From Candidatus Magasanikbacteria bacterium RIFCSPHIGHO2_01_FULL_41_23 (lineage in GTDB: Bacteria; Patescibacteriota; Patescibacteriia; Magasanikbacterales; UBA922): a DNA stretch of 64,000 nucleotides. The notes beneath the pieces are model-generated. The model ran no database searches and was not told the DNA's origin. It worked only from the letters and a program-made list of their open reading frames with translations. The translations under genes were made by a program, and so were the position numbers. The DNA is taken from the NCBI GenBank assembly GCA_001782805.1, contig MFPT01000002.1, positions 5,401 to 69,400 on the forward strand, written 5' to 3'. Shown in pieces: positions 3,818-48,536 of this stretch. Each line of letters opens with the position of its first letter. Position 1 is the first letter of the stretch.

Positions 3818-3818
3818 A

Positions 3819-5105: not shown

Positions 5106-5182
5106 TTCGGAGTTCTCGTTCCCTGCCTCCCGACGAAAAATCGGGGGGCGGGGTTCACACAACTTTGTTTATCCGAATAATT

Positions 5183-5725: not shown

Positions 5726-5763
5726 AAACTAATCTAAAAAATTAATTACCAGTAGTATATACC

Positions 5764-7512: not shown

Positions 7513-8184
7513 CTATTTTGAAATGATAATTACAAATTCGCCTTTTTCCGGAATTTTTATGGTCATGATTTCGGTCATTGTTCCGCGATACACAGTTTCA
7601 AATTTTTTCGTTAATTCTCGACAAATACAGATTTTTCTTTCCGGATTTAATGATGCAGCCAATTCAGTCAGGCATTTTTGGATGCGGTGACTTGATTCAT
7701 AGAATACCACGGTCGTTTTAGTTTTGGCTAGCTCTTTAAAAAATGTCTGCCGGCCTTTTTTGTGCGGTGGAAATCCTAAAAAAAGAAAATTGTCCGTGGG
7801 AAATCCGGAAATGGATAACGCCGCGATTAAGGCCGATGATCCTGGAATTGGTATGACAGTAGTCTCTTTATTATTTTTAGTTATTTGTTCAATTAAATAA
7901 TTCCCCGGATCACAAATTCCCGGAGTGCCCGCGTCAGTTACCAACGCCAAATTTTTTCCCTTAGCCAATAATTCTTGAACTTCCTTAATTTTAGCCGAAT
8001 CACTGTATTCATGATAACTTAACGTCGGCGTTTTTATGGCATAATGATTCAGAAGATTTTTCGTCACGCGCGTATCTTCACATAAAATCAAATCAACCGT
8101 GCGCAGTGTTTCCAGCGCGCGCAACGTTATATCTTCCATATTGCCGATGGGAGTAGCGACGATGTATAGTTTTCCATTTTCCAT
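7513..8184 (-). CDS. rsmI: 16S rRNA (cytidine1402-2'-O)-methyltransferase RsmI
   Basis: The N-terminus LYIVATPIGNMEDITLRALETLRTVDLILCEDTR is the canonical RsmI/tetrapyrrole-methylase-fold signature. Confidence 0.9.
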   Translation of the reverse strand: MENGKLYIVATPIGNMEDITLRALETLRTVDLILCEDTRVTKNLLNHYAIKTPTLSYHEYSDSAKIKEVQELLAKGKNLALVTDAGTPGICDPGNYLIEQITKNNKETTVIPIPGSSALIAALSISGFPTDNFLFLGFPPHKKGRQTFFKELAKTKTTVVFYESSHRIQKCLTELAASLNPERKICICRELTKKFETVYRGTMTEIMTIKIPEKGEFVIIISK

Positions 8185-8259
8185 AGATAGATATTAACAG
8201 GAATGACAAGGAAAAACAAGGCTCTGTATCTCAATAAATCTATGGTATACTGTTACCCT

Positions 8260-10626
8260 ATGTCAAATATTAAAAATCCTTTAATTTGGTTACTGGCTAT
8301 CGGACTAATTTTAAGTCCGCGCTTAGTCAAAACTGCGGAATTCAACCCCAACAACATAATTTCTGATGCTGAGCTTCAGGATTATGATTCATTGGGACGC
8401 GCGGAAATTCGCAGTTTTTTGCGCAATAAAAACAGTGCTCTCACTGATCTTATTATTGAAGATTTTGCTGGTAAAAATCGCTATGCGAGTGAAATTATTT
8501 ATCAGGCCGCACAGAATTATCAAATTAATCCTAAATATTTGTTGGTAAAATTACAAAAAGAGCAAAGCTTAATTAACAGCTCCCAACCAACTCAACGACA
8601 ATTGGATTGGGCCACTGGTTATGGCGTTTGCGATAGTTGTGATACAACTGACCCGGCTCTGGAAAAAAATAAAGGTTTTGGCAAACAAGTGGATTATGCC
8701 GCGGGCATTATGCGCTGGTATTATGAAAATATCAATTCTACCGGCTGGATAAAAAAACCCAATGTAACCTATACGATTGACAGCACACCGATAACTCCGG
8801 TCAATGAGGCTACGGCTTTTTTGTATACCTACACTCCGCATCTTCAAGGTAATGCAAATTTCGCGCGCCTTTGGAGTAATTGGTTCAGTCAAGTTTATCC
8901 GGATGGAACACTGATAAAAAGCGAAGCAAGCTCGACAATTTTTGCGATTATAAATGGAGAAAAACGGCCAATTAAAAATATGAGTGTGTTGTCGTCACGC
9001 TTTAATCCTCAAATGATGATTGTTGTGCCGGCCGAAGAACTGACTCGCTACAAAACCGGCATGATGATTACATATAATAACTATTCATTATTAAAAATAA
9101 ATGAGACGTATTATCTGCTGGATTATGAAATTGCTCGGCCATTTGCCAGCGCGGAAATTTTTAGACAATTTGGCTATAATCCGGATGAAGTTTTTGAAGC
9201 AAGTGAAGCTGATCTGGCCGGATATACTATTGACGAACCAATTACGCTGGAAGATCTATACCCAACTGGGAGAATGGTTACTATTGGCGAAACAGTGTAT
9301 TACTTAAAAAATAACCGTTATTATTTTTTCCCGAGTTTGGAAATTCTGAAAGTCAGATTTCCTCGATTAAAACCACAGGCAATTTCTTCCGAAGAATTGG
9401 CAAAATTCGAATCGGGCGGTCCATTATTATTTCCTGACGCCACTTTGGTTGGATCCCAATTGACCAATAGAATCTATGTAATTGAAAAAGGTAAAAAGCG
9501 ACTGATTCCTTCGGAAAAAATATTCTTGAATCTAGGCTATAAATGGATCAATGTAATGTGGCTTGACGATTTGACTTTGGATCAACATCAAAATGGCGAA
9601 CCCCTATACACCGATGAATTATTAAATAGGAATGCAACGTCAACCGCAAAAATTGAATTGACTGCGGCCAAAAAAGCTGTAGCGCAAAAAATTATTCCTA
9701 AAAAAGTAATTGTGCCGGCAAAAAAAACTGTTGTCGCGGTTAAAAAACCAACAGCGACTTTTTTTTCGCCACCAACATCAACTGAACCAATGCGTTTTGT
9801 GGAAACAGGGATGATGTACACTCTGCGACCTGAATCAGCCAAAAATTCCGAACCGCATTTGACCACGATAATTGACAGTTACATTGTGGCAAGAATTAAT
9901 AATGGAGTTACAGAAATCGTTGCGGAAAAAAATGCTGATGTTCCTCGACCGTTGGCATCATTAACCAAAGTAGTCGCCGCCTATCAAATGGGACGCGATT
10001 CAATTGACACGGAAAAATCAGTCAAATATAGTCCCACAAAACACAGTGCTCCGTCCGGTTATTTGTACAAAATTTCTGCCGGAGACACTGTCAAAAATAA
10101 GGATCTCCTGAGCGCACTACTCATTTCTTCATTTAACACGCCGGCACTGATGCTGGTGGATTCACTCGGGAAAAATCAAGCGGAATTTGTGACGGAAATG
10201 AATAATCAAATAAAAGAATGGGGACTGACAAAATCGTATTTTTTTGATGCGCATGGATACGATGTCCGCAATCAAAGCACGGCACGGGAATATGTAACGA
10301 TATTTACCACTGCGCTTACTGATCCAATCCTCGAGTCATATTTGGGAGAAAAATCATACACTTACGAGGAATTAAGAAACGCGGGCGGAGCGTCAATTCA
10401 CCGTGACATTAACACCAATCGTTTATTTTTTAGCACAGACGCGCCATACACCGTATTGGCAAGCAAAACCGGTTATTTGTACGAAGCCGGATACAATATG
10501 GCCATGATTGTGGAACGAGTCGGTGATAGCCAAAAATTTGCTATCATTAGTCTGGGCAATCCGGATTACAATAAAAAATATTCAGAAACTGATCGCCTAA
10601 CGCGTTGGGCTCTTAAAAATTTTTAA
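8260..10626 (+). CDS. Secreted protein with a C-terminal D-alanyl-D-alanine carboxypeptidase (peptidase S11, PBP5-like) domain and a large N-terminal domain of unknown function
   Basis: Signal peptide MSNIKNPLIWLLAIGLILSPRLVKTA. The C-terminal region carries SxxK (ASLTK), an SxN-like motif, and KTG (ASKTGYLYEAGYN). The start was chosen at the Met preceding the signal peptide. Confidence 0.7.
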   Translation: MSNIKNPLIWLLAIGLILSPRLVKTAEFNPNNIISDAELQDYDSLGRAEIRSFLRNKNSALTDLIIEDFAGKNRYASEIIYQAAQNYQINPKYLLVKLQKEQSLINSSQPTQRQLDWATGYGVCDSCDTTDPALEKNKGFGKQVDYAAGIMRWYYENINSTGWIKKPNVTYTIDSTPITPVNEATAFLYTYTPHLQGNANFARLWSNWFSQVYPDGTLIKSEASSTIFAIINGEKRPIKNMSVLSSRFNPQMMIVVPAEELTRYKTGMMITYNNYSLLKINETYYLLDYEIARPFASAEIFRQFGYNPDEVFEASEADLAGYTIDEPITLEDLYPTGRMVTIGETVYYLKNNRYYFFPSLEILKVRFPRLKPQAISSEELAKFESGGPLLFPDATLVGSQLTNRIYVIEKGKKRLIPSEKIFLNLGYKWINVMWLDDLTLDQHQNGEPLYTDELLNRNATSTAKIELTAAKKAVAQKIIPKKVIVPAKKTVVAVKKPTATFFSPPTSTEPMRFVETGMMYTLRPESAKNSEPHLTTIIDSYIVARINNGVTEIVAEKNADVPRPLASLTKVVAAYQMGRDSIDTEKSVKYSPTKHSAPSGYLYKISAGDTVKNKDLLSALLISSFNTPALMLVDSLGKNQAEFVTEMNNQIKEWGLTKSYFFDAHGYDVRNQSTAREYVTIFTTALTDPILESYLGEKSYTYEELRNAGGASIHRDINTNRLFFSTDAPYTVLASKTGYLYEAGYNMAMIVERVGDSQKFAIISLGNPDYNKKYSETDRLTRWALKNF

Positions 10627-10627
10627 T

Positions 10628-11419
10628 ATGGCAATTGTTTTTTCGGCGATTGTGCCGCATCCGCCCGTGCTGTTACCGAATGCTCCGGAAGTCGCGCGCG
10701 ACCGTCTGGCATCTACTCGCGCGGCTCTGGCGATTTTGGAACAGGAATTATACGTCAGTCGTCCCAATCTCCTGATTATAATTTCACCGCATGCCGGGAC
10801 TTTCCTCAATGCCTTTACTGTTCATGGTCATCCAACACTGACTTCTTGTTTTGCGGAATTTGGTGATGTGGTAACCAAACGAACATGGCTTGGCGCGCCG
10901 GAAATGGCTGCAAAAATCAGTCATCGTCCGAATCAAAAAGTTATTCCCGTGCAAATGAGCGGCGAAGAGCGTTTGGATCATGGTGTTTCAATTCCTCTGC
11001 TATTTTTGACTGAACATTTGGCTAATCTCAAAATTTTACCATTGGGATTTAGTAATTTGCCACCCAAAAAACATTTTGAATTTGGTGAACTAATTAAGGA
11101 GGTACTAATGGAAGAATCTTTGCGCTGCGCCGTGGTTGCTTCGGGTGATTTGTCTCATACGCTAACGCCAAAATCACCTGGGAAATTCAATCCGCGGGGC
11201 AAGGAATTTGAACGAACTATTATTGAACTACTGTGTGCCAAAAATACGGTTGGGATTGCGAACATGGATCCGGCTTTGGTTTTGGCCGCGGATGAATGCG
11301 GGTATCGATCAATTCTGATTCTTTTGGGTATTTTGAAAAATTCCGACAGTGCGTTTCAGGTTCTGGCTCACGAAGCTCCTTTTGGCGTGGGTTATTTAAC
11401 CGGAATATTCCATCACTAA
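10628..11419 (+). CDS. LigB-family (class III extradiol dioxygenase, YgiD/Memo-like) protein
   Basis: IVPHPP..., ISPHAG, DHGVSIPLLFL and VASGDLSHTL align by eye with the YgiD/DODA motifs HGSP, SAHW, DHG and VASGNVVHNL. Confidence 0.5.
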   Translation: MAIVFSAIVPHPPVLLPNAPEVARDRLASTRAALAILEQELYVSRPNLLIIISPHAGTFLNAFTVHGHPTLTSCFAEFGDVVTKRTWLGAPEMAAKISHRPNQKVIPVQMSGEERLDHGVSIPLLFLTEHLANLKILPLGFSNLPPKKHFEFGELIKEVLMEESLRCAVVASGDLSHTLTPKSPGKFNPRGKEFERTIIELLCAKNTVGIANMDPALVLAADECGYRSILILLGILKNSDSAFQVLAHEAPFGVGYLTGIFHH

Positions 11420-11420
11420 T

Positions 11421-13127
11421 ATGATTGCGGACATTATTCCTTTTATCCGCTTGCCGCGTCAACTGGTTTTTTTTACGTATCATGTCCCTAACCATTTGGC
11501 TGTCCAAATAGCAATTGGGCAATATGTGAGTATTCCCTTTCGCTCGCAAAAAATTTTCGGATTGGTTGTAAATATTAATTCTCGCGAACAGAGCAGTCTG
11601 AAATCAGTGGATACAATAATTAATTCAATACCATTGGTCGGAGCTGACTATCTAACGCATTTAAAAAATTTGGCCTCTTTTTATGGAGTATCATTGTCAG
11701 TCGCCACCACATTGGCCTTGCCGCCGCTCCAATCACGAAAAATAATGGAAATGGAAATTGAACCATGGCAGGAAAAACATAGAGTTGCATCAGGGGAAAA
11801 ACCAATATATCATTGGTATAAAACGACAGCTGAACACAGTGCCGCATACGCGGAATATTCGAATGAAAAAGTAGTAATTATTGTTCCCGAAGTCGGACGC
11901 ATTCCGGAAGTGATGGCCGTTCTTTCTTCTGAACGTCAATCGCATGCATTAATTTGGTCAAGTGAGCTTAGTCAAAAAGAACAGCGCGAAATTTGGTTTA
12001 AAATTCGCAATCATGCGGCGCAAACTCTCGTGGCTACTCGCAGTGCGCTATGGCTTCCTCTTCAGCAGAGTTTTGATCGAATTATCGTGGATTACGAACA
12101 TTCGGAAAATCACAAGCAATGGGATCAAACTCCGCGCTATCACACCAAAGATTTGGCAAAATTATTCAGCCGAAATTTTGGCGTAGCTTACAGTGAAATG
12201 AGTTATTCGCCGAGCGTGACCAGTTTTTATTTTATTGGGAACGGCAATTATTCGTCAGTCAATTCAGCCGTACGGTATTTCGATTCACCGATTATCATTC
12301 AAGAAGCCTCAAATATCAAAAAACCGGAAAAATTATATACGTCGACAATGGCTCGTATTATGGAATCTCTGGTTCCGGGTACTGACGCGGTAATTCTTTA
12401 TAATTGCAAAGGCACAATATTCCCTGATACGGGCATTCCCGCAGTAGTGCGAGAAATAAAACAAAAAATTTTCGATCCGGCCGTTCATGTTATAACGGTA
12501 TCGGCCAAAACACCGCTCGAAAAAATCACTGAAAAAAATTCCACTGATACACGTTTGATTGTCAGTACGCATTCAATTCTCGGCATGCTGGATTGGAAAC
12601 GAGTTAGTATAATTATACTTCTTGATTATGATTCCCAATTACAGTTTGCCGAATACGCGGCCGAAGAAATGTTGTGGCATACTATTGCCGATATTTTATT
12701 TCATAAAAATTCCACGACGCCTTTTATTATTCAAACCAAACAATTGGAACATCGAATTTTTGCTTCGTTGAATCAGCCTAACGATTGGTATGCCGGCGAA
12801 ATTAAGGCGCGTGAATTATTGGACTATCCCCCGTTTTCTTATTTGCTACGTTATTTAATTTCCGGCAAAAGTGAAGATGAGTCCAAACAGCGAGCCAAAC
12901 AAACTCTGGCTTGTCTGGAACAACAATTGACGAAGACCAAAAAAAAGATTATAATCCAAGGCCAGATCCAGGCTGAACCACAGTGCGCTCGCGGATCATA
13001 TTGGGAAGTTATAATGCTAAAAATTTTGGAATCAGATATACTCTCAACAGTCCTCACCTTAAATTCTCTTATGCCGAATACGATTAAAATCGATCCACAT
13101 CCGATTTCACTTTTGAATCCACGCTAA
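11421..13127 (+). CDS. priA: Primosomal protein N' (PriA) homolog, degenerate (predicted ATPase-inactive)
   Basis: The N-terminus (IPFIRLPRQLVFFTYHVPNHL...VSIPFRSQKIFGLVV) and the segment RSALWLPLQQSFDRIIVDYEHSENHKQWDQTPRYHTKDLA are collinear with E. coli PriA ([38 protein letters not shown]). The Walker A motif GxGKT is replaced by YKTTAEHS, DEEH is replaced by DYEH, and there is no Cys4-Cys4 zinc region. The gene sits in the conserved priA-def-fmt arrangement. Confidence 0.7.
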   Translation: MIADIIPFIRLPRQLVFFTYHVPNHLAVQIAIGQYVSIPFRSQKIFGLVVNINSREQSSLKSVDTIINSIPLVGADYLTHLKNLASFYGVSLSVATTLALPPLQSRKIMEMEIEPWQEKHRVASGEKPIYHWYKTTAEHSAAYAEYSNEKVVIIVPEVGRIPEVMAVLSSERQSHALIWSSELSQKEQREIWFKIRNHAAQTLVATRSALWLPLQQSFDRIIVDYEHSENHKQWDQTPRYHTKDLAKLFSRNFGVAYSEMSYSPSVTSFYFIGNGNYSSVNSAVRYFDSPIIIQEASNIKKPEKLYTSTMARIMESLVPGTDAVILYNCKGTIFPDTGIPAVVREIKQKIFDPAVHVITVSAKTPLEKITEKNSTDTRLIVSTHSILGMLDWKRVSIIILLDYDSQLQFAEYAAEEMLWHTIADILFHKNSTTPFIIQTKQLEHRIFASLNQPNDWYAGEIKARELLDYPPFSYLLRYLISGKSEDESKQRAKQTLACLEQQLTKTKKKIIIQGQIQAEPQCARGSYWEVIMLKILESDILSTVLTLNSLMPNTIKIDPHPISLLNPR

Positions 13128-39480: not shown

Positions 39481-40617
39481 TCAAACAATAAAATCAATCA
39501 TATTTCCTCGAGTAATCGTCTCAAAACTCGCGCCCGGATAGGCCGTTGTCCAATCAGACGGCGGACGACCGGATTTATTTCCCCATTTGAATTCATAGCC
39601 AAACAATTTGCCATCTCGTTCTTCCACCCAATCAATTTCTTTTTGGTCATAAGTTCGCCAAAAATAATTATTGGCGTAGAGTCCGGAGTATGATTGTTTT
39701 TTTATCCTCTCCATGACTAGATAATTTTCCCAAAGCAGACCAACATCATCGCGCACAGACAGCGGATTAAAATTATTAATCAACGCGTTTCGTACACCCG
39801 TATCATAAAAATAATAACGCGACATTTTGGTTACTTCTTTGCGCAAATTCCGGCTAAAACCACGAACATTCACTATAACAAAAGCCTTCTCCAATAAATC
39901 GAGATACTTGGCAACAGTCTGTTTATTCATCCCCAAACTGGTTCCAATTTCAGACATAGATACCTCCTTGCCAATCTGATAGGCCAGCAATGTAAGAAGG
40001 TCGCGTATTTTTTTGGCGTTGCGAATATTTTCCAATTCTAAAATATCTTTAAATAAATAGGAATTGACCAATTCGTGCAGATATTCCTCCTGACGCGTAC
40101 GGTCATTAATACTAAATAATTCCGGATAACACCCAAAGACCAATAAATCCTCCAATGATTCCTGAAAGTATTCCAAACCTTTGGTTTCAATTATTTCCGC
40201 GGCCGAAATGGGGAATAAGTTAACGATTTTTTGGCGACCGGTCAATGGTTCCCCGACCTGACGCGCCAGGCTGAATGAAGCTGAACCGCTGGCGATAACT
40301 GACACATCTGGAAAATTATCAACAATAATTTTTAAACTCTGCCCAATTTGGGGAATTTTCTGCGCTTCATCAATGATAATGACTTTGCTATCACCAACAA
40401 ACCGCCTTAATGATTCTATATTCTGAACTGAAAGCGTGGCTTGAACTACGGTTGTTTCTCCGTTGACTATTTTAATGTGCTCTCTAGCCTCGTGATTCTG
40501 GATAAATTCATTAAGCAAAGTTGTCTTGCCCACGCGACGCGGTCCGTACAGCAAAATAACCTTTCCCGGCTGAAGTTTGTCGGCAAGCAATTTTTTGGCT
40601 AATCTATTGATTATCAT
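39481..40617 (-). CDS. AAA-family ATPase with a C-terminal DUF4143 domain
   Basis: Walker A LLYGPRRVGKTTLL, Walker B IIIDEAQ, and a C-terminal winged-helix/DUF4143-like region. Confidence 0.75.
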   Translation of the reverse strand: MIINRLAKKLLADKLQPGKVILLYGPRRVGKTTLLNEFIQNHEAREHIKIVNGETTVVQATLSVQNIESLRRFVGDSKVIIIDEAQKIPQIGQSLKIIVDNFPDVSVIASGSASFSLARQVGEPLTGRQKIVNLFPISAAEIIETKGLEYFQESLEDLLVFGCYPELFSINDRTRQEEYLHELVNSYLFKDILELENIRNAKKIRDLLTLLAYQIGKEVSMSEIGTSLGMNKQTVAKYLDLLEKAFVIVNVRGFSRNLRKEVTKMSRYYFYDTGVRNALINNFNPLSVRDDVGLLWENYLVMERIKKQSYSGLYANNYFWRTYDQKEIDWVEERDGKLFGYEFKWGNKSGRPPSDWTTAYPGASFETITRGNMIDFIV

Positions 40618-40838
40618 ACCGAATTTAGTTAAATAAAGACATTATAATGACCTTATTTTACTAAATTCAGATATTTATGTCAATAGCGCAACTTGGGTAG
40701 AGCTTTCGAGGTATACATACCCCCCACTTGCATTTGGCAAATAGTTTCTGTGTATAACTCCACGAATAACAAAATTTGATCCAATTCCTTAATATGGTAT
40801 AATCTCAATAATTAACTAAACCATGTTAAGCATTTCTT

Positions 40839-41792
40839 ATGAATTATTTACCATCAATCACAAAAATCCGTTTGGAAGAAAAATTGGCCAAACTGAATAA
40901 ACTTCGTCCTTTACCAAATTCTTCGGTACAAAAACTGCGAGAAAAATTTCAGATTGAAATGACTTACAATTCAAACGCGATTGAAGGCAACTCTTTAACT
41001 TTAAAGGAGACTTTTTTAGTTATTAACGAGGGTATTACGGTAAAAGGAAAACCTTTAAAAGATCATTTGGAGGCGAAAGATCATCATGCCGCGCTGGAAT
41101 ATCTTTATGACTTGATAGATAAAGACAAAAAGCACACTGTTTCTGAAATGCTCATAAAAAATTTGCACCAAATTATTTTACAGGAAACTGACAGAGAGTG
41201 GGCTGGTCGGTACCGAAACGCCAATGTAATTATTGGCGGAGCCAAGCATACTCCACCCGATGCTCTGCAAGTACCACAAAAAATGCGTGATTTAATTAGC
41301 TGGCTTATTTCACAAAAAAATAAAATAAATATTATTGAACTAGCTGCTTTACTACACCACAAACTAGTACACATTCATCCTTTTTTTGACGGCAATGGCA
41401 GAACTGCACGCTTGACCATGAACCTATTTCTTATGCAAGCCGGATATCCGTTGGTGGTAATTATGAAAACCGACCGAAAAAAATATTATGACGTGCTGGA
41501 TAAAGCGGATAGTGGCGTATATGAACCACTCCTAAAATTTATTGCTCGCTCAATAGAACGTTCGCTGGATATTTATCTAAAAACGTTAACTCCGGCAACC
41601 ACAAAACAGGAAAAATTTATTTCATTGACTGAAATATCCAAAATTACTCCGTTTTCCGCCAAATATCTAAACTTACTAGCAAGACAAGGAAAACTGGAAG
41701 CATACAAAGAAGGGAGGAATTGGTTAACTTCAAAAGAAGCGATTGAACGGTATTTAAAAAATAGGACAAGACAAAGAAAAATTATAAAATAA
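40839..41792 (+). CDS. Fic-family protein (AMPylase-type) with an N-terminal inhibitory motif
   Basis: Fic motif HPFFDGNGRTARL, and the inhibitory (S/T)xxxE(G/N) motif in TYNSNAIEGN. The C-terminal helical/HTH-like extension is a tentative inference, not supported by a recognised motif. Confidence 0.85.
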   Translation: MNYLPSITKIRLEEKLAKLNKLRPLPNSSVQKLREKFQIEMTYNSNAIEGNSLTLKETFLVINEGITVKGKPLKDHLEAKDHHAALEYLYDLIDKDKKHTVSEMLIKNLHQIILQETDREWAGRYRNANVIIGGAKHTPPDALQVPQKMRDLISWLISQKNKINIIELAALLHHKLVHIHPFFDGNGRTARLTMNLFLMQAGYPLVVIMKTDRKKYYDVLDKADSGVYEPLLKFIARSIERSLDIYLKTLTPATTKQEKFISLTEISKITPFSAKYLNLLARQGKLEAYKEGRNWLTSKEAIERYLKNRTRQRKIIK

Positions 41793-41980
41793 ATGATCCA
41801 CTTAACAGATAAAAAATGTCTTATTATTTATCTAACTTTGGTTTAATTTGCCATGTAATGCCTGTATTGATGCTCCTTGACTGTGAAGTTTTTCCGCTAA
41901 TTCCAATACCTGATTTACATCGAGATCATCACTCAACACTTTACCAATAGAATAAATTATTAAAGCCAACTATAAATATA

Positions 41981-42010
41981 ATTAACCACCGGAAACGACC
42001 GGTGGTTAAT
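41981..42010. terminator. Perfect palindromic hairpin (attaaccaccgg-aaacga-ccggtggttaat), candidate bidirectional terminator
   Basis: 12-bp stem between the convergent Fic gene and the minus-strand operon. The flanks are AT-rich, but there is no long T-run. Confidence 0.4.
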
Positions 42011-42045
42011 TATAGATTTATTTAGCTTAAGAAATTAGAAGAAAA

Positions 42046-42420
42046 TTAATCCTTATGAACCTCGTTCATCTTCAATTGTTTAGCAATTTCAATCCAGATA
42101 TCGGGTTTAATTATAGAGAGAATTTCACTTACTGAAAGAGGAGGTAATTTAGATTTTTCAAGCTTGACTTTTAACCTTCTCAGTTTATCGCTAAGTTTAG
42201 TTGGATCATCCAATGAATATAAAGAATACCGCTCATCTTCTATTGAACTGGATCTCAATAAATCATCTTCACTCTCTGAATAATCAATTGATCCTCCAAT
42301 CTGGAGGATAGCCCACATAACATCACCTGACGCAGCTTTTTCAATGATATTTTTTGCCTCGGCACACTGACCGTCCATGTGATGTCCGGTCGTACAAACT
42401 TTACAAAGTGATTCTGGCAT
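42046..42420 (-). CDS. Small Cys/His-rich (zinc-ribbon-like) protein, paralog of the next gene
   Basis: The N-terminus carries CKVCTTGHHMDGQC. The remainder is acidic and Ser-rich. Confidence 0.45.
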   Translation of the reverse strand: MPESLCKVCTTGHHMDGQCAEAKNIIEKAASGDVMWAILQIGGSIDYSESEDDLLRSSSIEDERYSLYSLDDPTKLSDKLRRLKVKLEKSKLPPLSVSEILSIIKPDIWIEIAKQLKMNEVHKD

Positions 42421-42453
42421 AAAATTAATTTTTACTTAGTTAATTATTAAAAT

Positions 42454-42924
42454 TTATTTTTTCTCTTCACTAAAATATCGTCTGTGAATTTCTGCGATTT
42501 TATTCGCCCATTTTCTCTCTAGCTTTGGCATTTCTTCTTTGTACATTGTAAAAGGATCTTTAAAGTAATTAGGCTCATCAAAATCCCAATCGTCTCGATG
42601 TACTTTTTCGTCTAAACGATCTAATTCTTCTTGATGAGTTTCGTCCATCGAACTAAGATCTTGCCTATCTTGCAGTTTACATTGTTCGCAATCCTTACGA
42701 AAAATCATATGAGAACAGTTTGCTTCAAAATCATCGCCTTTTTGCCATTCTAACAAATCTTCTTTTTGTCTTGCAAGACGATCAAGCATTGCAGTTCTAA
42801 CAGTTTGGATTTGTTCCTCTTTTTTATTTTTCCGTTCTTCGGCAGAAATTCTGGATCCCTGATGACAGGTTGTACAACTAACGCTGGACATTCCATGCGG
42901 ACATGGTTTAAATCGGTCAGACAT
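42454..42924 (-). CDS. Small Cys/His-rich (zinc-ribbon-like) protein
   Basis: Start chosen at MSDRFKPCPHGMSSVSCTTCHQG, which shares the CTT(G/C)H core with the downstream paralog. A second CEQCK pair is present, and the C-terminus is charged and helical. Confidence 0.45.
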   Translation of the reverse strand: MSDRFKPCPHGMSSVSCTTCHQGSRISAEERKNKKEEQIQTVRTAMLDRLARQKEDLLEWQKGDDFEANCSHMIFRKDCEQCKLQDRQDLSSMDETHQEELDRLDEKVHRDDWDFDEPNYFKDPFTMYKEEMPKLERKWANKIAEIHRRYFSEEKK

Positions 42925-42954
42925 AAAATGAAATATAATAAGTAAATAAACCAA

Positions 42955-43872
42955 CTATCTATTTTTCGCTTCCTCCAAAATTTTCTTCACTTCAATTGTT
43001 ATTGCTCCAAACCTGCCTCCCAGAGCATTAGGATTAGTCTCAACAATTTTTAATAAATTAGGAATATCCGCCTCAACGATAAGTTGAGCGTCAATGAGTT
43101 TTTGAATGCATACTTGCTCCACAATCTCCATATTATAACTTACTGCGACTCGTTTGTCTTTATTTTCCTGTGGTTTTGGAGCTGCCGGTTTTTCTTCCTC
43201 CGGATCCGGTTCATTGAAACCTCCAAATTCTATCGTTGGGACAGTAATAGATGTGAGTGATGGATCGGGTTGTTTTTCGATCGGCGTCTTCACCTCTAAT
43301 CTTTTGGGACTTAATGGTTTATCAGGTAGAGGTCTCTCTCCAATCTTCTTATAATGGATGTCATTATTAATAAAACCAAGGGTGATGTGAAAATCCTTCC
43401 TTTCTAAACCAAGGCACTCGCGAAAAGCCGTAGCTTCAGGAATCTCAATAGCAACAAAACAAACTTTTTTGTCTTTATCGGCTTTTACCATTCCCGGCTG
43501 GCTTCCATCGATATACCCGACTCCATTCACTTTTACCGGCGACTGACCACTTTGCAACTGACTGGACAAGCGATTAAGTTGCTCAATCTGCTCATCTGTC
43601 AGCCTACTCAAAATTCCCTTTTCTTGCTGTTCAATAATCGTTACATGAAATTTGCCTCTTGACTTAAACGGCAGAGACATTTTTGCTTGCATCGTCTCTA
43701 GTGTTGGAGTCAAATCCGTATTAACTGTTATTTCAATGGACTTCATGCGAGCCAAACTCTCGCGCGTGAGCTCAGCTAATTTTGGTGCAAAATCCGATAC
43801 CGAAGAAGTTAATGGCTGCTCTGGTTTAATAATTGCTAGAGACTCTGAAATTGGTCGTGTGACTTCAGGCAT
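42955..43872 (-). CDS. 2H-phosphoesterase-superfamily-like protein (LigT / cyclic phosphodiesterase fold) with a Pro/Lys-rich linker and a C-terminal domain
   Basis: Two H-x-T-x motifs, each preceded by a hydrophobic residue: KFHVTII and DFHITLG, about 85 aa apart. That spacing is typical of 2H enzymes. Confidence 0.5.
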   Translation of the reverse strand: MPEVTRPISESLAIIKPEQPLTSSVSDFAPKLAELTRESLARMKSIEITVNTDLTPTLETMQAKMSLPFKSRGKFHVTIIEQQEKGILSRLTDEQIEQLNRLSSQLQSGQSPVKVNGVGYIDGSQPGMVKADKDKKVCFVAIEIPEATAFRECLGLERKDFHITLGFINNDIHYKKIGERPLPDKPLSPKRLEVKTPIEKQPDPSLTSITVPTIEFGGFNEPDPEEEKPAAPKPQENKDKRVAVSYNMEIVEQVCIQKLIDAQLIVEADIPNLLKIVETNPNALGGRFGAITIEVKKILEEAKNR

Positions 43873-43882
43873 AGATAGTACA

Positions 43883-45244
43883 TTATTTTGAAAAAAAATT
43901 CGTTACGACTCGCCTAAAATCTTCTGCATTCAACAATGAGGTTTTTGACGCTGCTATCAAACTTCCGCCTGCTACACAAACAGTTGGATCTCCAATTCCG
44001 AGATATTCTTTTCCGGGCCGAAGAGTCGTCCATGTTTTTAATAACTTTGTTTCTTCTTCACTGAGAGTGCCCTCTTTTTCCTTTTGTCGCAACGAAAGCA
44101 ATATAGGCTCACGTTTTTCGCGTTCAGCGTCATTAAATATAGCTTCAAGGGATGTGAGATCAAACAAATCAAGTGACTCCACCTTCATACCGATATCATA
44201 ATTATCTCCACCTTTTTTACGATCCTGACCCGCATAAACCGCCACAATCGTTTCTGGTGGCATCCGCATGTAAGCCATGTTGGTCACCGCAAGAGGACTT
44301 AATTTTGTCTGCCCAAAAATCAGGAGTGTAACTTCCAAATTTGCCCCCTCCTTTGTTCTGATGGTCACACGACGTTGTTCAGCGGATTCAAACTCTTGAT
44401 TAAATGCCTCGACATCTGTCAAGGATTTTTCACGTCCAATTCTTAATAATTCTTTGAATTCATCTGAAAATGTCAACCCATTTGTTGTATCAAGATCTTC
44501 GAAATTAATCTGAAATCCTTCAGATTCTGCTTTTGCACACGCATTAAAAATCGCAAACATTTGTGTGATCAGCTCGCCATGAAATTGTTCGCTCACCGCT
44601 TTCGAGCGTCCTGCCTTTTCTTCTTTTGGAATTTCTGCAGAACGCCAAATCGCGCCAATCGCTGCGTGCATTTTATCAAAAAGAACATTTTTTAGGCTTC
44701 CGAAATAGCCGGGTAAACTTTTAATAAATCGTTGCGGATCCGTTTCGCCAAAGCGTCCATAGTCCACAAGATTCACAATTTCTCCCAATTTTTGTGTAAA
44801 TTTTGGAAGACCGCTCACGGATCGTGTGTCCACAAGAATTTTTGTGAGATATGTCGCCGTGATTGAATCAAGATCACTGTCAATATGACCGCTCACCCCT
44901 TTTATGTTTTTTTCTTGGATTAGAGCCAAAACCTCATCCGGGAAATCCGCGACCATTTTCGCCGCACAACGTCGAGTCCCGCCTTCTGGCATCTCTAATA
45001 CAGACGCATCAACACCATGATGGTCAATAATTCCATTTCGAATCGTCCAGCGATAAATTTCATCAACTTCTTCCGGAGTTTGAGGAGAACGCATTTCCAA
45101 AGGTGGAATAATCGGTTGGCCAGTATCAACCACGACCACATCGGGAGACAAGCCTTCGGCACGTCCCGCTTTTTGCACACTAGCAAAACAATTTTCCGGA
45201 CTCGTTGGCCTCACTTCCATTTCAGGTGTTTCTGTATCTCGCAT
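43883..45244 (-). CDS. Hypothetical protein (453 aa) with a DHH-like tripeptide (IIDHHGVD)
   Basis: Complete ORF and the first gene of the four-gene minus-strand operon. Assignment to the DHH family is weak: the DxD motif I and the GGGH motif were not found. Confidence 0.5.
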   Translation of the reverse strand: MRDTETPEMEVRPTSPENCFASVQKAGRAEGLSPDVVVVDTGQPIIPPLEMRSPQTPEEVDEIYRWTIRNGIIDHHGVDASVLEMPEGGTRRCAAKMVADFPDEVLALIQEKNIKGVSGHIDSDLDSITATYLTKILVDTRSVSGLPKFTQKLGEIVNLVDYGRFGETDPQRFIKSLPGYFGSLKNVLFDKMHAAIGAIWRSAEIPKEEKAGRSKAVSEQFHGELITQMFAIFNACAKAESEGFQINFEDLDTTNGLTFSDEFKELLRIGREKSLTDVEAFNQEFESAEQRRVTIRTKEGANLEVTLLIFGQTKLSPLAVTNMAYMRMPPETIVAVYAGQDRKKGGDNYDIGMKVESLDLFDLTSLEAIFNDAEREKREPILLSLRQKEKEGTLSEEETKLLKTWTTLRPGKEYLGIGDPTVCVAGGSLIAASKTSLLNAEDFRRVVTNFFSK

Positions 45245-45322
45245 AACTATATTATAAAAAATATTATAATCTAACAGAGAATATACAAAATTCTAAAACT
45301 CAAATTCTTCACTTATAGTTTA

Positions 45323-45332
45323 CCCCCCCCCC
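45323..45332. repeat. C10 homopolymeric tract in a divergent promoter region
   Basis: tttacccccccccc-a-cc lies between the start of the minus-strand operon (45244) and the start of the plus-strand surface-protein operon (45647). Nearby direct repeats tgtgcataa(c/g)t occur at about 45358 and 45394. Confidence 0.7.
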
Positions 45333-45646
45333 ACCTGCTTTCAGCAAATATTTACTGTGCATAACTTATGTAAATAATTCCATGTGCATAAGTCCATTTG
45401 ACAAGGATTTTTTTTATGTTTACACTTTCATTACAATTTATCCTCAATAATGCTGGAAGTAAGGTAACCCAATGGGAATTCCTTCACTGTGCCGCAACGG
45501 TAATTTCGATTTATGGAGCTTGCTCTGAGCGAGCGAAGCGAGTCGAAGAGTCCGGTCTTCATTATAGAGCGTAACCCGCGCAGGAAAATGCCTTTTTAGG
45601 CTTATTTATTTCTCTGCGCGGAGAAATTTTTTATTTAAATAAGACT

Positions 45647-46237
45647 ATGATGAGATGTTTAAAAATCCTGCGCCGTCACTGGTTAGCTACCATTATTTTA
45701 TTCGGTAGTTTGATTCTCATGATTATATATGGGAATAGTCAAAACATCGAATCGAATAGTAATAAACTCCTCAATCAAGAATCACAAAGTGTAGAAATAA
45801 AGTTAAAAGAAAAATCAATCTCTGTTCCTACAAATCAAAATTATGACACGGAAAATAAAAATGAAAATAACACTTCAACGCAAACCAACAGTCCAAAAAC
45901 CATAGAACAAAAACCAAACGCAGACGCTCTTGAAAAAAATCTAATCGCGGCCAAAATTATCATTGGTGAAAATGAGTATTTAATCAATGTTACGCCTTCA
46001 AGTTCAGTGTATGACGCGCTTATTCAGATGAACAAATCCGGCCAAGCCAGTTTTAATTTCAAAGAATTTAGTGGACTCGGATATTTTGTAGAAGGAATCA
46101 ATGGTAAAACAAGTGACAAATTACGTGGACGATATTGGATTTATTATATTAACGGCGTCAAAGCGCAAATGGGGATTTCCCAATACATTCTTAAATCAAA
46201 CGACATAATAACCTGGAAATATGAAAATCAAGAATAA
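45647..46237 (+). CDS. Membrane-anchored DUF4430-like (transcobalamin-like C-terminal domain) protein
   Basis: N-terminal TM and an Asn/Ser-rich linker. The C-terminus RYWIYYINGVKAQMGISQYILKSNDIITWKYE fits the DUF4430 pattern W.Y.VNG......Y.L..GD.I.W.Y. Confidence 0.45.
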   Translation: MMRCLKILRRHWLATIILFGSLILMIIYGNSQNIESNSNKLLNQESQSVEIKLKEKSISVPTNQNYDTENKNENNTSTQTNSPKTIEQKPNADALEKNLIAAKIIIGENEYLINVTPSSSVYDALIQMNKSGQASFNFKEFSGLGYFVEGINGKTSDKLRGRYWIYYINGVKAQMGISQYILKSNDIITWKYENQE

Positions 46238-48536
46238 CGCGTTCGGATATTTAATTTCCCTTTTGGTTTTAACTGTATTATTTTTTCCCGTACTAACACG
46301 CGCGGAAGAAGAAAATTCAACCACTACGACAACTACAGCAACACTCACAGAACAAACTACCACTACTACACCGACGATAACAGAAACACCGACTGCACTA
46401 GAAACTACGACCATAACAGAAATATCCAGCTCAACCCCAGTTACTGTTTTAGATTTTGCCCAATTAACGATTCGCATTGACAATACGATTATTTTTTCTG
46501 ATTCTATCGCGATTAGCCCTGCCACGACTACAGTAACTGATAATCAAAATAAAAACTATGATGTTGTGGATAACACTGTTTTAGGAATGATATTTAATGC
46601 TGATTCAGCCACAACGACGTTTGCCGTTACTGATCTGGCCTATTATTCTTCGTTTGATTCATTTTTAATTAATTGTATTGCAGTCGCGGACACGTCGTCA
46701 TGCTATAACTGGCAATACACGGTCAATGATGTCTATCCCTACATGGGAATTGATGATTACATATTGAAAAATAATGATGATGTCTATTTGTATTTTGGCA
46801 ATCAAACGCGATTTAACTTGGCAACATCTACTATTACCACTGCAGAACCACTAGCTATTACAACTGAAAAATATGATTATCGAAATAATCAATGGACTCC
46901 ACGACCCAATGTAACAGTGGGAGCAACCAAACCTGATCCTAATAATCCATGGAGTCCAATTGTAGTTACTTCAACACTCACCAATGAATTCGGTTTGGCC
47001 AATCTTTATATAAGCGTGACCGGTACATACAACGTCGGAATTAGTGAAGATTATTATTATCCGACCCAAGCAGTTACAGTTCTTGATATTATTTTAAATA
47101 ATGAAACAACGACAACTACCGTAACATCAACTCCGACAACGACGACGTCAACAATAGAAGTCATAAATTCAAATAATTCCGGTGGATCAGGTTCTACTAC
47201 TGCTGAAATTATTCCGACCATGGATGTTGTGAAAGCAATTGAATTCTTAAAAGCGCAACAAAATAAAACCACTGGCGCGATTGGTTTCCCGAACGGAGTC
47301 GAGGGACTCACCACAAGTGGTTCAGGCACTCTCTATAGTGATTGGGCCGCAATCGCCTTTGGCAGCGACGATAATTTGGGCGAAGCCAAAAATCTTTTGG
47401 CGACATATTTAAAAACCGATCCCAGTCCGGGTACAGCGGCGACCGATTTTGAGCGACGCGCCATGGCCATAATGTCTTTGGGAATCAATCCGTATTCGGG
47501 AACCAAAACCAATTATATTGCGGAAATTCTTAAAACATATCAAGCCAATCAATTTGGCGACAGCGGATTGGTCAATGATGATATTTTTGCGCTTTTTCCT
47601 CTGATTAAAGCCGGTTATACAATCAGTGACACAGAAATTAAAAATAGTGTGGCCTTTATTTTGTCGCGCCAAAATCAAAATGGTGGTTGGGAAAGTCCGG
47701 ACTTAACCGCCGCGGCTGTCCAAGCTTTATCTTTGGTCAAATCACAAATCGGAGTAAATGACGCATTAATTAAAGCTAAAGAATATTTAAAAACCAGTAC
47801 AAAGAATAATGGCAGTATTGGTGATAATGTTTTTTCCACCAGCTGGGGAATTCAGGCAATTGTTTCACTTAATGAATCAATTAATTCCTGGAATGGAACA
47901 AATGAAAATCCGTTAACGTATTTGGCCAAGCAACAGCAAACTGATGGCGGATTTGAATCAGCATCCGGCTCGCTTGATAATCGCATCTGGGCAACAAGTT
48001 ATGCTATTCCCGCGGCACAAAATAAAGTTTGGGCGGATATTCTTGTTTCATTTGCTAAACCGGTCATACAAAATACTGTTGAGACCAATCAAACCAGTTT
48101 TGGTAGTGGCGGCAGCGGAGAATTAGTCACAAGTACACCAACAATCACACCGGCAATCATAAACCAAGCAACATCAACTCCAAACAATAGCGAATCAGAA
48201 AAACTTTCCTCCAGACCAATTGAAACAGCAGTAAACGAATCACCGGAAAACAATAATGTTAAAGAAGTAGTCATAGAAAAAATGACAGAGATTGCCAAGA
48301 TTGAATCAAAATTTTCTAATTCACCATCTGTTGAGTTAGCCCAAAACCAATTAACGGTTCTAAATGAATCAGAATCTCCTATTGACAGAAATAATAATGT
48401 CGGCGAAATCATAACCACTGTGATCCCGTTAAAAAACACATCACCAATTGCTGGTCGCGAATTTGCTGGAGCCGCGACAATGGCTAGCAGCGCTGGCGCT
48501 TATTTAGCCTGGCGATTCTTCCAATCGTTAATCTAA
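46221..48536 (+). CDS. Large secreted Thr-rich surface protein with a DUF4430-like domain and prenyltransferase/squalene-oxidase-like (alpha/alpha-toroid) repeats
   Basis: Signal peptide, then poly-Thr tracts. DDYILKNNDDVYLYFGNQ is DUF4430-like. The repeats GGWESPDLTAAAVQALSL and QQTDGGFESASGSLDNRIWATSYAIPAA are prenyltransferase-like. The C-terminal tail is hydrophobic. Confidence 0.55.
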   Translation: MKIKNNAFGYLISLLVLTVLFFPVLTRAEEENSTTTTTTATLTEQTTTTTPTITETPTALETTTITEISSSTPVTVLDFAQLTIRIDNTIIFSDSIAISPATTTVTDNQNKNYDVVDNTVLGMIFNADSATTTFAVTDLAYYSSFDSFLINCIAVADTSSCYNWQYTVNDVYPYMGIDDYILKNNDDVYLYFGNQTRFNLATSTITTAEPLAITTEKYDYRNNQWTPRPNVTVGATKPDPNNPWSPIVVTSTLTNEFGLANLYISVTGTYNVGISEDYYYPTQAVTVLDIILNNETTTTTVTSTPTTTTSTIEVINSNNSGGSGSTTAEIIPTMDVVKAIEFLKAQQNKTTGAIGFPNGVEGLTTSGSGTLYSDWAAIAFGSDDNLGEAKNLLATYLKTDPSPGTAATDFERRAMAIMSLGINPYSGTKTNYIAEILKTYQANQFGDSGLVNDDIFALFPLIKAGYTISDTEIKNSVAFILSRQNQNGGWESPDLTAAAVQALSLVKSQIGVNDALIKAKEYLKTSTKNNGSIGDNVFSTSWGIQAIVSLNESINSWNGTNENPLTYLAKQQQTDGGFESASGSLDNRIWATSYAIPAAQNKVWADILVSFAKPVIQNTVETNQTSFGSGGSGELVTSTPTITPAIINQATSTPNNSESEKLSSRPIETAVNESPENNNVKEVVIEKMTEIAKIESKFSNSPSVELAQNQLTVLNESESPIDRNNNVGEIITTVIPLKNTSPIAGREFAGAATMASSAGAYLAWRFFQSLI

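Follow-up and report, generated by a model that had tools for sequence, protein, structure and literature searches.

The block at 39481-45340 is not a single defence island. Its core is a conserved gene pair encoding a 2H phosphoesterase and a predicted DHH-type phosphoesterase, and on balance we think it probable that this pair, the conserved part of a chromosomal operon running from 45244 to 42046, is a two-enzyme module for healing RNA or tRNA 3' ends. The genes for the Fic and DUF4143 proteins are independent neighbours that lie outside the RNA-end module. All coordinates are positions in the window, the 64-kb stretch of DNA that was analysed (Table 1).

Table 1. Features of the block and its immediate surroundings
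Feature	Position	Strand	Evidence
AAA_14+DUF4143 protein	39481-40617	-	Pfam 2.8e-42
Fic+HTH_17 protein	40839-41792	+	HPFFDGNGRTAR at residue 180
Bidirectional intrinsic-terminator hairpin, 16-bp stem	41977-42014	.	computed
Small 124-aa protein	42046-42420	-	ORF, sequence
Small 166-/156-aa protein	42454-42954	-	ORF, sequence
2H phosphoesterase, 305 aa	42955-43872	-	2H-SAK clade
Predicted divergent DHH/DHHA1-type phosphoesterase, 453 aa	43883-45244	-	OGH64895.1
Operon upstream region with promoter-like site and G10/C10 tract	45245-45400	-	

Operon layout and the limits of the block

A sequence-only reading had proposed one accessory island of six ORFs. The coordinates of all six were borne out and the motifs that it quoted are real, including the catalytic motif of the Fic protein and its inhibitory motif (SNAIEG at residue 45). 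The island itself did not hold together: DUF4143 and Fic genes accompany the DHH-like family in none of about 35 distinct loci. We saw no mobility genes or flanking repeats at the block. In GC and GC3 the genes for the DHH-like and 2H proteins resemble the rest of the window, and only the Fic gene and both small genes have a somewhat higher AT content.

What had been taken as a palindromic element at 38.4 kb proved to be a weak inverted repeat in AT-rich sequence (20 nt, 75% complementary), and a housekeeping dus gene (Pfam Dus, 5.5e-72) lies between it and the block. The hairpins at 45.3 kb do not mark the edge of an island; they are mostly part of a candidate AdoCbl riboswitch (45428-45622, plus strand, with a sub-threshold score), the leader of the neighbouring DUF4430 genes.

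The minus-strand operon was found as described, with short gaps of 10 nt between the genes for the 453-aa and 305-aa proteins and 33 nt between those for the 166-aa and 124-aa proteins. Between the 305-aa and 166-aa ORFs there is no gap if the latter starts at a TTG and a gap of 30 nt if it starts at the ATG at 42924, which is the likelier start. A promoter-like site (TTTACA-16-AATATT, 45374-45347) lies upstream, and the strong hairpin at the other end closes both the operon and the convergent Fic gene. The C10 tract that had been pointed out is present at 45323-45332, where it would be inside the operon 5' UTR, and no other G/C homopolymer in the window reaches a length of 8.

The 2H and DHH-like proteins

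The 305-aa protein, for which a 2H fold had been foreseen, is a member of the 2H superfamily and of the 2H-SAK clade (Pfam 2H-SAK, 62 bits). It has catalytic motifs H76-x-T78 and H162-x-T164 and a helical C-terminal extension (about residues 240-305). Its database annotation begins at M43, yet conservation reaches upstream of that residue (L35 and L40 are invariant). Bacterial 2H-SAK proteins of this type are very rare: a set of 5.8 billion proteins contains 14 clusters of them. The substrates of 2H enzymes are ribose 2',3'-cyclic phosphates, and a 2'-OH is therefore needed.

The 453-aa protein, labelled "hypothetical" at NCBI, appears to be a very divergent DHH/DHHA1-type phosphoesterase, previously unannotated as such. 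The DHH-like tripeptide seen earlier is meaningful, since it is invariant throughout a real protein family. The invariant motifs are VDTG (39-42), IDHH (73-76) plus D79, HxDSDLDS (120-127), DYG (161-163), GGDxYD (345-350), and DPTVxVAGGSLIAAS (419-433). The protein differs from NrnA, pAp phosphatase, GdpP, and RecJ in several ways. It scores 17.9 bits against Pfam, below the cut-off of 28.1 bits; its motif order is non-canonical, with the DTG and DHH motifs ahead of the DxD motif, which is on the domain's last strand; a helical segment of about 110 residues is inserted; and the DHHA1 'GGGH' reads GGSL, with the histidine replaced. The best domain match is the AlaRS C-Ala domain, and there are no sequence relatives in the PDB. 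The family is very narrow (39 clusters).

Conserved partners and orphan small proteins

The 2H and DHH-like genes recur as a pair. The operon had been read as a unit of four genes, and that set was found nowhere else, the small genes being without homologues, but the window and three other lineages (L011, L024/L052, and L025/L043) have a 2H-SAK gene that is next to a DHH-like gene of the same strand or one gene removed from it. The DHH-like proteins of these three lineages are 61%, 35%, and 33% identical to that of the window. The hub of this conserved neighbourhood is the DHH-like gene, which has a 2H gene next to it in only 4 of about 31 lineages and no recognisable partner in about 6 of them.

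The partners of the DHH-like gene are interchangeable, and all are phosphoesterases or RNA enzymes. The most frequent alternative is an HD-like protein, seen in about 11 lineages and, in L014, as a fusion. One HD-like type, A6, scores 20.5 bits against Pfam HD and is matched by A5 with an hhalign probability of 98.4%; for the commonest partner type (c2) the HD assignment is at the motif level only (hhalign 18.7%). EEP enzymes are immediately upstream of the DHH-like gene in 4 lineages, large Methyltransf_32 proteins are partners in 4-7, and a Pol-beta NTase is the partner in L020. A CCA-type PolyA_pol nucleotidyltransferase abuts the DHH-like gene in L027 and is downstream of the 2H gene in L024/L052. 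P0052 is a 2H-SAK protein fused to a domain that L007 encodes immediately upstream of its DHH-like gene, and a PI3/PI4-kinase-like protein adjoins 2H-SAK in L051 and, in L014, the DHH-like/HD fusion. The 2H-like N-terminus of another fusion, P0004, was not significant in profile comparison. No CCA enzyme, RNA ligase, polynucleotide kinase, or methyltransferase was found within the 64-kb window, and the tRNA link thus rests on other genomes (two solid lineages and one fragment).

Viral members of the 2H-SAK clade have RNA-repair partners in 15 of 21 distinct groups. These include an adjacent CCA-type NTase (7 groups), a polynucleotide kinase (7, of which 6 are Pnkp-like), and fusions to DSP-PTPase (4) or RNA ligase (2); in L061 and L065 the viral 2H-SAK is fused to DSP-PTPase, P-loop kinase, and RNA ligase.

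Both small proteins are genome-specific orphans, and the four-gene set is confined to the window's genome population. Their supposed paralogy was undetectable (BLASTP E=2.5), and they have in common only short N-terminal Cys/His clusters. The 166-/156-aa protein is Cys/His-rich and highly charged, with an N-terminal CxH-x6-CxxCH and a second CxH-x7-CxxC cluster. It had no matches in Pfam, PADLOC, NCBIfam, or PHROGs and no homologues in about 50 related loci, and its 90% cluster is confined to the same genome population. The 124-aa protein has an exact N-terminal CCHC zinc knuckle (C6-X2-C9-X4-H14-X4-C19), which is lost from the database annotation beginning at M15, and a phmmer search of 1.84 billion representatives returned only the protein itself. 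The strict CX2CX4HX4C pattern occurred twice in 2,285 six-frame ORFs, each time from residue 6, in this protein and in the L011 2H protein. N-terminal Cys/His knuckles were present in 9 of 44 system proteins versus none of 404 other ORFs, and in other genomes N-terminal zinc knuckles are found on the 2H and DHH-like proteins. The small proteins may be lineage-specific accessories, with knuckles like those fused to 2H and DHH-like N-termini elsewhere; their probable role is to bind single-stranded RNA or to tether the enzymes.

RNA 3'-end healing and its alternatives

All functional steps of the healing module are predicted. Ends with 2',3'-cyclic phosphates are products of metal-independent RNases or of spontaneous transesterification, and opening them is established 2H chemistry. 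The 2H-SAK enzyme would open such ends to a phosphomonoester. The DHH/DHHA1-like enzyme may then do the next, metal-dependent step and restore a 2',3'-OH end, either by taking off the leftover 2'/3'-phosphate (compare the DHH-family pAp phosphatases) or by trimming the damaged terminal nucleotide(s) (compare NrnA and RecJ). The healed end would be usable, most plausibly by a CCA-adding enzyme on tRNA, a step that we infer because of the gene neighbourhoods in related genomes. Clearing of cyclic ends by 2H enzymes in RNA repair is described in PMC7824862.

Nucleotide turnover or salvage is a possible but unlikely alternative. In that case the DHH-like protein would act on short oligoribonucleotides as a nanoRNase of the NrnA type or as a pAp phosphatase, the 2H protein would act on 2',3'-cyclic mononucleotides or short >p oligonucleotides, and RNA breakdown products would be returned to nucleotides in a salvage-dependent organism. 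However, so narrow a family is a poor fit to an essential housekeeping nanoRNase, the N-terminal CCHC-type knuckles and C-Ala-like domain suggest polynucleotide or tRNA substrates, and the CCA-type NTase and Methyltransf_32 partners and the viral RNA-repair contexts point to polymer ends, not mononucleotides.

Of the two functions first offered, the evidence favours RNA-end processing over cyclic-nucleotide degradation. The gene combination does fall outside described systems, as had been stated: the four operon proteins had no match in PADLOC, NCBIfam, or PHROGs, and no defence-system model in the PADLOC scan matched the operon. We consider it very unlikely that the 2H protein (Acb1-like or poxvirus cGAMP PDE-like) and the DHH-like protein (GdpP-like or ring-nuclease-like) destroy second messengers in immune regulation or anti-defence. 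No cyclase, CBASS, CRISPR, or effector genes were recognised beside any of the roughly 35 DHH-like loci, and 2.9 million viral contigs contain no member of the DHH-like family. The window 2H protein is no closer to Acb1, the phage anti-CBASS 2H nuclease, than to CNPase, Usb1, or LigT; its gene is on the chromosome of a CPR bacterium, and the viral relatives of its clade are beside CCA enzymes, Pnkp, DSP phosphatase, and RNA ligase, not in anti-defence loci.

We give even less credence to DNA-end processing, in which a RecJ-/Cdc45-like ssDNA exonuclease would work with 3'-end cleaners (EEP/ExoIII-like, 2H, HD) in DNA repair: 2H enzymes need a 2'-OH, the pairing with CCA-type NTases and the RNA-repair setting of 2H-SAK are specific to RNA, and the best domain match is to C-Ala, not to RecJ's OB-fold-containing architecture. 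Least credible is that there is no functional unit, only four neighbouring genes with one orientation, and that the small ORFs perhaps give no functional protein, a view that the orphan status of those ORFs and the restricted four-gene set would favour, but the 2H/DHH-like adjacency recurs across lineages 33-61% identical, the two genes are separated by 10 nt, and the knuckle of the 124-aa protein is at a position matching that of the L011 2H protein.

The healing module resembles the HD domain fused to CCA-type NTase (2004, cited in PMC6961547) in its predicted job, which is to take the 2',3'-cyclic phosphate or phosphate off the (t)RNA 3' end ahead of the CCA enzyme. CCA-type nucleotidyltransferase genes adjoin the DHH-like and 2H genes in related CPR loci, and HD-like proteins are the commonest substitute or fusion partner of the DHH-like gene. 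In contrast to that single HD domain, the predicted activities here are split over two unrelated enzymes, and the window has no CCA enzyme. The 'Swiss Army Knife' (SAK) RNA-repair proteins and phage 2H-SAK cassettes (PF22547, PTP-SAK PF22784) belong to the same Pfam 2H clade and have the logic of cyclic phosphodiesterase, then phosphomonoesterase, in common with the module, but the window 2H protein is stand-alone with a helical tail, and the DHH/DHHA1-like protein, not a PTP or HAD, would fill the phosphatase slot.

Bacterial Pnkp-Hen1 and T4 Pnkp-Rnl also encode end healing in an operon. These systems heal and seal, and Hen1 also methylates. The Methyltransf_32 protein of related CPR loci recalls the methyltransferase partner but is not of the Hen1 family, and the enzymes in the window are of other families, with no polynucleotide kinase, ligase, or methyltransferase among them. 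With kinase and ligase absent, the module would heal ends but not seal them. We conclude that the 2H and DHH-like pair most likely serves RNA or tRNA 3'-end cleaning in a small group of ultra-small (CPR) bacteria.

The two enzymes of the operon

We predict that the minus-strand operon consists of a two-gene RNA-end-healing core, encoding a 453-aa DHH-like protein and a 305-aa 2H protein, plus two orphan zinc-knuckle accessories, small166 and small124. In the database, every gene of the surrounding block is annotated as hypothetical except that for the Fic protein. All six ORFs that the sequence-only reading had placed there are present (see the table).

The 453-aa protein is, by sequence motifs and a structural model, a very divergent DHH/DHHA1-type phosphoesterase. 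In a set of 5.8 billion proteins its family comprises 39 clusters at 90% identity. All 39 lack a Pfam domain and are called no more than "hypothetical", and the named records come from Uhrbacteria, Kuenenbacteria, Magasanikbacteria or "Patescibacteria". The invariant stretches of the alignment are IDHH (73-76), D79, HxDSDLDS (120-127), DYG (161-163), GGDxYD (345-350) and DPTVxVAGGSLIAAS (419-433). The Asp/His motifs of the superfamily (DxD, D, DHH, D) are present, with D74-H75-H76, H120, D124, D126 and D161 invariant and D40 and D122 nearly so. Against Pfam DHH (PF01368)/DHHA1 the 453-aa protein scored below the gathering cut-off (17.9 versus 28.1 bits, in the motif I region only). A sub-threshold match to Pfam DHH was found in 29 of 31 family members (best 5.2e-5), and other Pfam families were matched by two members each at most.

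The AF2 model of the 453-aa protein was confident (pLDDT 92.4, pTM 0.88) and had remote fold similarity to both DHH/DHHA1 domains. Foldseek matches were weak (best E = 7e-3), with RecJ, DHH, Cdc45 and C-Ala in the top ranks, and the family profile had no match in the PDB by sequence. The motifs do not follow the canonical order I-II-III-IV, and run instead as DTG (40), DHH (74-76), HxDxDxD (120-126) and DYG (161). Because DTG and DHH precede DxD, and because the strand bearing DxD (E116-120) is the last of the N-terminal domain, the model suggests that this domain is circularly permuted relative to canonical DHH. A helical insertion of ~110 residues separates the two domains. The canonical DHHA1 substrate-binding motif is GGGH; VAGGSLIAAS (425-433) retains Gly-Gly and Ala-Ala at their positions and has Ser/Leu at that of the His.

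The 305-aa protein has a 2H fold, as had been proposed from its motifs. FHVTII (H76) and FHITLG (H162) are two H-x-T/S-x motifs, one per lobe, and among 13 homologues there is no variation at H76, T78, H162 or T164. The protein matched Pfam 2H-SAK (PF22547) with 62.1 bits versus a cut-off of 27 (E = 7.8e-17). SAK proteins were reportedly first described in eukaryotes. The multidomain architecture of the SAK type was absent from the 305-aa protein, which is a 2H domain and an uncharacterised helical tail only; 2H fused to phosphatase, kinase or ligase was seen only in four viral relatives (L056, L061, L063 and L065). Nor is it of the Acb1 type, that is, a phage-encoded 2H protein specifically related to Acb1. 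Bacterial 2H-SAK proteins of its type are very rare (14 clusters). A 664-aa protein (P0004) was considered as a 2H/DHH-like fusion. It has the motifs FHATAI and SHVTLY only, no Pfam match and no significant hhalign score, and was not counted as evidence because its support was at the level of motifs.

Two database start codons, those of the 2H protein and small124, appear to be wrong. For the 2H protein the annotation begins at M43 (263 aa), yet residues 34-42 are conserved in homologues, with L35 and L40 invariant; the annotated start would thus conceal a conserved N-terminus. The annotated start of small124, M15 (110 aa), cuts off a CCHC knuckle.

Partners in CPR and viral genomes

In 35 distinct lineages (<90% identity), partner genes that vary but recur are grouped around the DHH-like gene as their hub. 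A 2H-SAK gene on the same strand, adjacent or one gene away, was found in the window and in loci L011, L024/L052 and L025/L043, where the DHH-like protein is 61%, 35% and 33% identical to that of the window; this pairing occurs in only 4 of ~31 lineages. HD-like proteins were present in ~11 lineages and in a fusion in L014. One HD-like type scored 20.5 bits against Pfam HD and 98.4% by hhalign against the fused type, and the commonest type (c2) resembled HD at the level of motifs only. We did not accept c2 as an HD domain (hhalign 18.7%, no PDB match). An EEP nuclease/phosphatase gene lay directly upstream of the DHH-like gene in four lineages, large Methyltransf_32 proteins were found in four lineages by Pfam and three more by homology, and the protein families c1 and c14 were encoded beside the DHH-like gene in six and four lineages. 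A Pol-beta NTase was present in one locus (L020). The gene for a CCA-type PolyA_pol tRNA nucleotidyltransferase abuts the DHH-like gene in L027 and is 3' of the 2H gene in L024/L052. In a further protein (P0052), 2H-SAK is fused to a domain whose gene in L007 lies immediately 5' of the DHH-like gene. About six lineages had no recognisable partner.

Several partner families had features of their own. The HD-like proteins of four loci share an invariant H...HD...H...H...D pattern and had no above-threshold Pfam match; the domain is C-terminal to the DHH-like module in the L014 fusion (854 aa) and is encoded by a separate downstream gene elsewhere. An apparent tandem pair of DHH-like genes in L022 was a clustering artefact from that fusion, and the second gene is of the HD-like A5 type. 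In proteins of 520-792 aa, Methyltransf_32 is central and is flanked by uncharacterised N- and C-terminal regions. Two PI3/PI4-kinase-like proteins of the protein-kinase fold are homologous to each other (E = 5e-8). One is encoded upstream of the DHH-like/HD fusion (L014); between a 2H-SAK gene and the second, which is 3' of it, there is one gene (L051). The two may be a kinase component of the system.

The viral relatives of the 2H protein were associated with RNA repair. The DHH-like family had no relative in 2.9 million viral contigs. Viral 2H-SAK was found at 26 loci, which fall into 21 distinct groups; many of these loci are on contigs of 150-476 kb. A CCA-type PolyA_pol NTase was within 3 kb in 7 of the 21 groups, directly upstream in several, and a polynucleotide kinase was adjacent or fused in 7 (6 of them Pnkp-like). 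Fusions to a DSP-PTPase (Pfam PTP-SAK) and to an RNA ligase were found in four groups and two groups, respectively, and in each of L061 and L065 a single polypeptide combines 2H, phosphatase, kinase and ligase. Altogether 15 of the 21 groups had an RNA-repair partner, which places the 2H protein of the window in a clade of RNA-end healing and not of immune-signal degradation.

On the large phage and giant-virus contigs from IMG/VR (L053-L078), a 2H-SAK gene for ~247 aa repeatedly lies just 3' of a gene for a ~390-aa nucleotidyltransferase with a PolyA_pol head (CCA type). This conserved two-gene cassette is the viral counterpart of the CPR arrangement.

Small proteins, neighbours and borders

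The two small proteins are orphans. They had been read as paralogues sharing zinc-knuckle-like N-termini. The paralogy was rejected (BLASTP E = 2.5), and the knuckle held for one of the two: residues 6-19 of small124 (CKVCTTGHHMDGQC) are an exact C-X2-C-X4-H-X4-C, but the spacing in small166, CxH-x6-CxxCH, does not fit. CCHC knuckles generally bind single-stranded nucleic acid. Among 2,285 six-frame ORFs of all loci, the strict pattern occurred in two, small124 and the 2H protein of L011, in both from residue 6. In L025 both the 2H and the DHH-like protein have looser N-terminal Cys/His knuckles, as do DHH-like proteins of three other lineages. With a pattern defined after the data had been seen, and with some sequences related, N-terminal knuckles were present in 9 of 44 system proteins versus 0 of 404 other ORFs (Fisher p ~4e-10). 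This distribution marks the knuckle as a mobile N-terminal module of the system, which in the window is carried by separate small proteins.

Neither small protein had a homologue in ~50 related loci. The small166 cluster is limited to this genome population, and small124 matched only itself among 1.84 billion representative proteins, apart from weak matches to repeat proteins. These matches were in multiple stretches (up to 11), between residues 11-75 and giant proteins of 1,236-4,371 aa, and suggest that a segment of small124 (residues 24-53) resembles a common repeat unit.

Features of the window and of related loci
Locus	Feature	Coordinates	Strand	Details
Window	AAA_14+DUF4143 ATPase	39481-40617	-	Pfam 2.8e-42; PADLOC candidate PDC-S01
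Window	Inverted repeat	40621-40668		24+24 nt, 88% complementary, no spacer
Window	Promoter-like site	40683-40655		best site; overlaps the inverted repeat
Window	Fic with C-terminal HTH	40839-41792	+	Pfam Fic 1.9e-24
Window	Terminator hairpin	41977-42014		bidirectional, 16-bp; closes the minus-strand run
Window	Operon	45244->42046	-	453, 305, 166, 124 aa; gaps 10, 0-30, 33 nt
Window	DHH-like	43883-45244	-	453 aa
Window	2H	42955-43872	-	305 aa
Window	small166	42454-42954	-	156 aa more likely than 166, ATG at 42924
Window	small124	42046-42420	-	124 aa
Window	C10 tract	45323-45332		G10 on operon strand
Window	Promoter-like site	45398-45426		precedes riboswitch match
Window	AdoCbl (B12) riboswitch match	45428-45622	+	RF01482; 33.6 bits versus gathering score 50, E = 0.0043, full model length
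Window	DUF4430	45647-46237		Pfam 3.7e-15
Window	DUF4430	46221-48536		Pfam 1.1e-07; 771-aa Thr-rich surface-type protein
L014	PI3/PI4-kinase-like	6635-7774
L051	PI3/PI4-kinase-like	1681-2475
L014	HD-like (fusion)	7809-10373
L022	HD-like	9818-11050
L040	HD-like	7405-8589
L023	HD-like	9395-10384
L011	Methyltransf_32	9276-11654
L041	Methyltransf_32	1187-3466
L044	Methyltransf_32	3582-5897
L024	Methyltransf_32	22-1584
L029	Domain X+2H-SAK fusion, Fic, HExxH protein	6001-8874

The operon and its two neighbours do not form one island. Fic and DUF4143 occurred in none of ~35 distinct DHH-like loci, and the four-gene set is not conserved, occurring only in this genome population. The 453-aa and 305-aa genes have GC and GC3 like the rest of the window; AT content is somewhat higher in Fic and in both small genes. 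The proposed borders also failed. What had been called a palindrome, at 38.4 kb, is an inverted repeat that is weak and AT-rich and is separated from the block by a housekeeping gene, dus, and the structured DNA at 45.4-45.6 kb, taken for border hairpins, is a candidate AdoCbl riboswitch on the plus strand. The interpretation of the block as a six-gene accessory or defence island fell; its other half, RNA-end processing, is the reading that the evidence favours.

The C10 tract is real and is the sole G/C run of at least 8 in the 64-kb window. It lies 79-88 nt 5' of the start codon of the DHH-like gene, just 3' of a promoter-like -10 element, and may be a tract for slippage or phase variation, or else an element of the 5' UTR. 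The riboswitch match, which is sub-threshold, is followed by two DUF4430 genes; it is probably a divergent CPR version of the B12 riboswitch that controls proteins for B12 binding or uptake.

The Fic protein has the motifs ascribed to it. The HxFx(D/E)GNGRxxR core is present as HPFFDGNGRTAR at residue 180 and the inhibitory (S/T)xxxE(G/N) as SNAIEG at residue 45, both as in the class with an N-terminal inhibitory helix; the protein scored 35.8 bits against NCBIfam SoFic, where the cut-off is 550. In PADLOC-DB v2 the two neighbours alone matched candidate families: DUF4143 matched PDC-S01 (4.6e-150) and Fic matched SoFic (1.8e-37) and PDC-S04. We conclude that Fic and DUF4143 are two candidate-defence singletons unrelated to the RNA-end-healing core.

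Directly 5' of the DUF4143 start codon, inside the 221-nt divergent DUF4143/Fic intergenic region, an operator-like inverted repeat overlaps the best promoter-like site and suggests joint regulation of both singletons. A second instance of Fic beside a 2H-SAK gene, possibly by coincidence, was found in L029. There, a 497-aa protein that fuses domain X (of the gene 5' of the DHH-like gene in L007) to 2H-SAK is followed directly by a short Fic (181 aa, HPFEDGNGR) and a 253-aa HExxH protein, a type also encoded 3' of 2H-SAK in L028.

A predicted tRNA 3'-end repair pathway

In RNA repair, cyclic ends are cleared by 2H enzymes (PMC7824862). From the observed family assignments, conserved adjacency and RNA-repair contexts, we infer in what order the steps run, on which substrates, and what the small proteins do, as follows. 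The 2H enzyme would act on RNA 3' ends by opening their 2',3'-cyclic phosphate, the DHH-like enzyme would remove the leftover phosphate or trim the damaged terminal nucleotide, and the restored 2',3'-OH end would be ready for use, with the CCA-adding enzyme, acting on tRNA, as its most plausible user. Our fullest proposal is tentative, and we hold it with less than even confidence: that the family of the 453-aa protein represents a new DHH/DHHA1 branch with a circular permutation and works as an RNA 2'/3'-terminal phosphatase or end-trimming exonuclease, in a pathway of tRNA 3'-end repair that is confined to one group of CPR (Patescibacteria), together with 2H-SAK (or HD or EEP), zinc-knuckle adaptors, Methyltransf_32 and the CCA-adding enzyme.

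The strongest alternative is that the DHH-like protein acts in salvage of nucleotides or nanoRNA, like NrnA or pAp-phosphatase. Salvage fits the housekeeping neighbourhoods, but does not fit the narrow distribution, the knuckles, or the CCA and methyltransferase partners. The 2H and CCA partners make processing of DNA ends unlikely. Degradation of a cyclic-nucleotide signal, in defence or anti-defence, draws its support from the level of the fold and is contradicted by the lack of cyclase or effector context beside DHH-like loci, by the viral data, and by the defence-system scan that the sequence-only reading had called for, in which the 124-, 166-, 305- and 453-aa proteins had no match in PADLOC-DB v2 at E <= 1.

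The predicted RNA-end-healing pathway differs from known heal-and-seal repair. Pnkp/Hen1, Pnkp/Rnl and RtcB systems encode a kinase and an RNA ligase, whereas the 64-kb window had no tblastn match at E <= 0.1 to queries for viral kinase, Pnkp, RNA ligase and CCA enzyme. The Methyltransf_32 proteins of CPR recall the methyltransferase of Pnkp-Hen1 repair, although they belong to another family. Cassettes that heal RNA ends with a 2H enzyme are already a known kind of system. The DHH-like family is unannotated, and no description of its pairing with 2H, or of the gene combination, was found in the literature searched.

Pfam, NCBIfam and PHROG lack a model for the DHH-like family, which by sequence has no relative of solved structure. 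It is an unusually divergent and apparently permuted member of the DHH phosphoesterases. If the prediction holds, a function would be assigned to a wholly unannotated enzyme family. Because 2H-SAK travels with CCA-adding enzymes and with Pnkp/ligase modules in CPR and large phages, it should not be given an Acb1-like reading on fold alone, and its context provides a reusable annotation rule. Investment in a tRNA 3'-end repair pathway is unexpected in the minimal genomes of CPR. If our proposal is true, some CPR bacteria keep modular RNA/tRNA 3'-end healing despite reduced genomes, with a phosphatase slot that would be interchangeable among DHH-like, HD-like and EEP enzymes.
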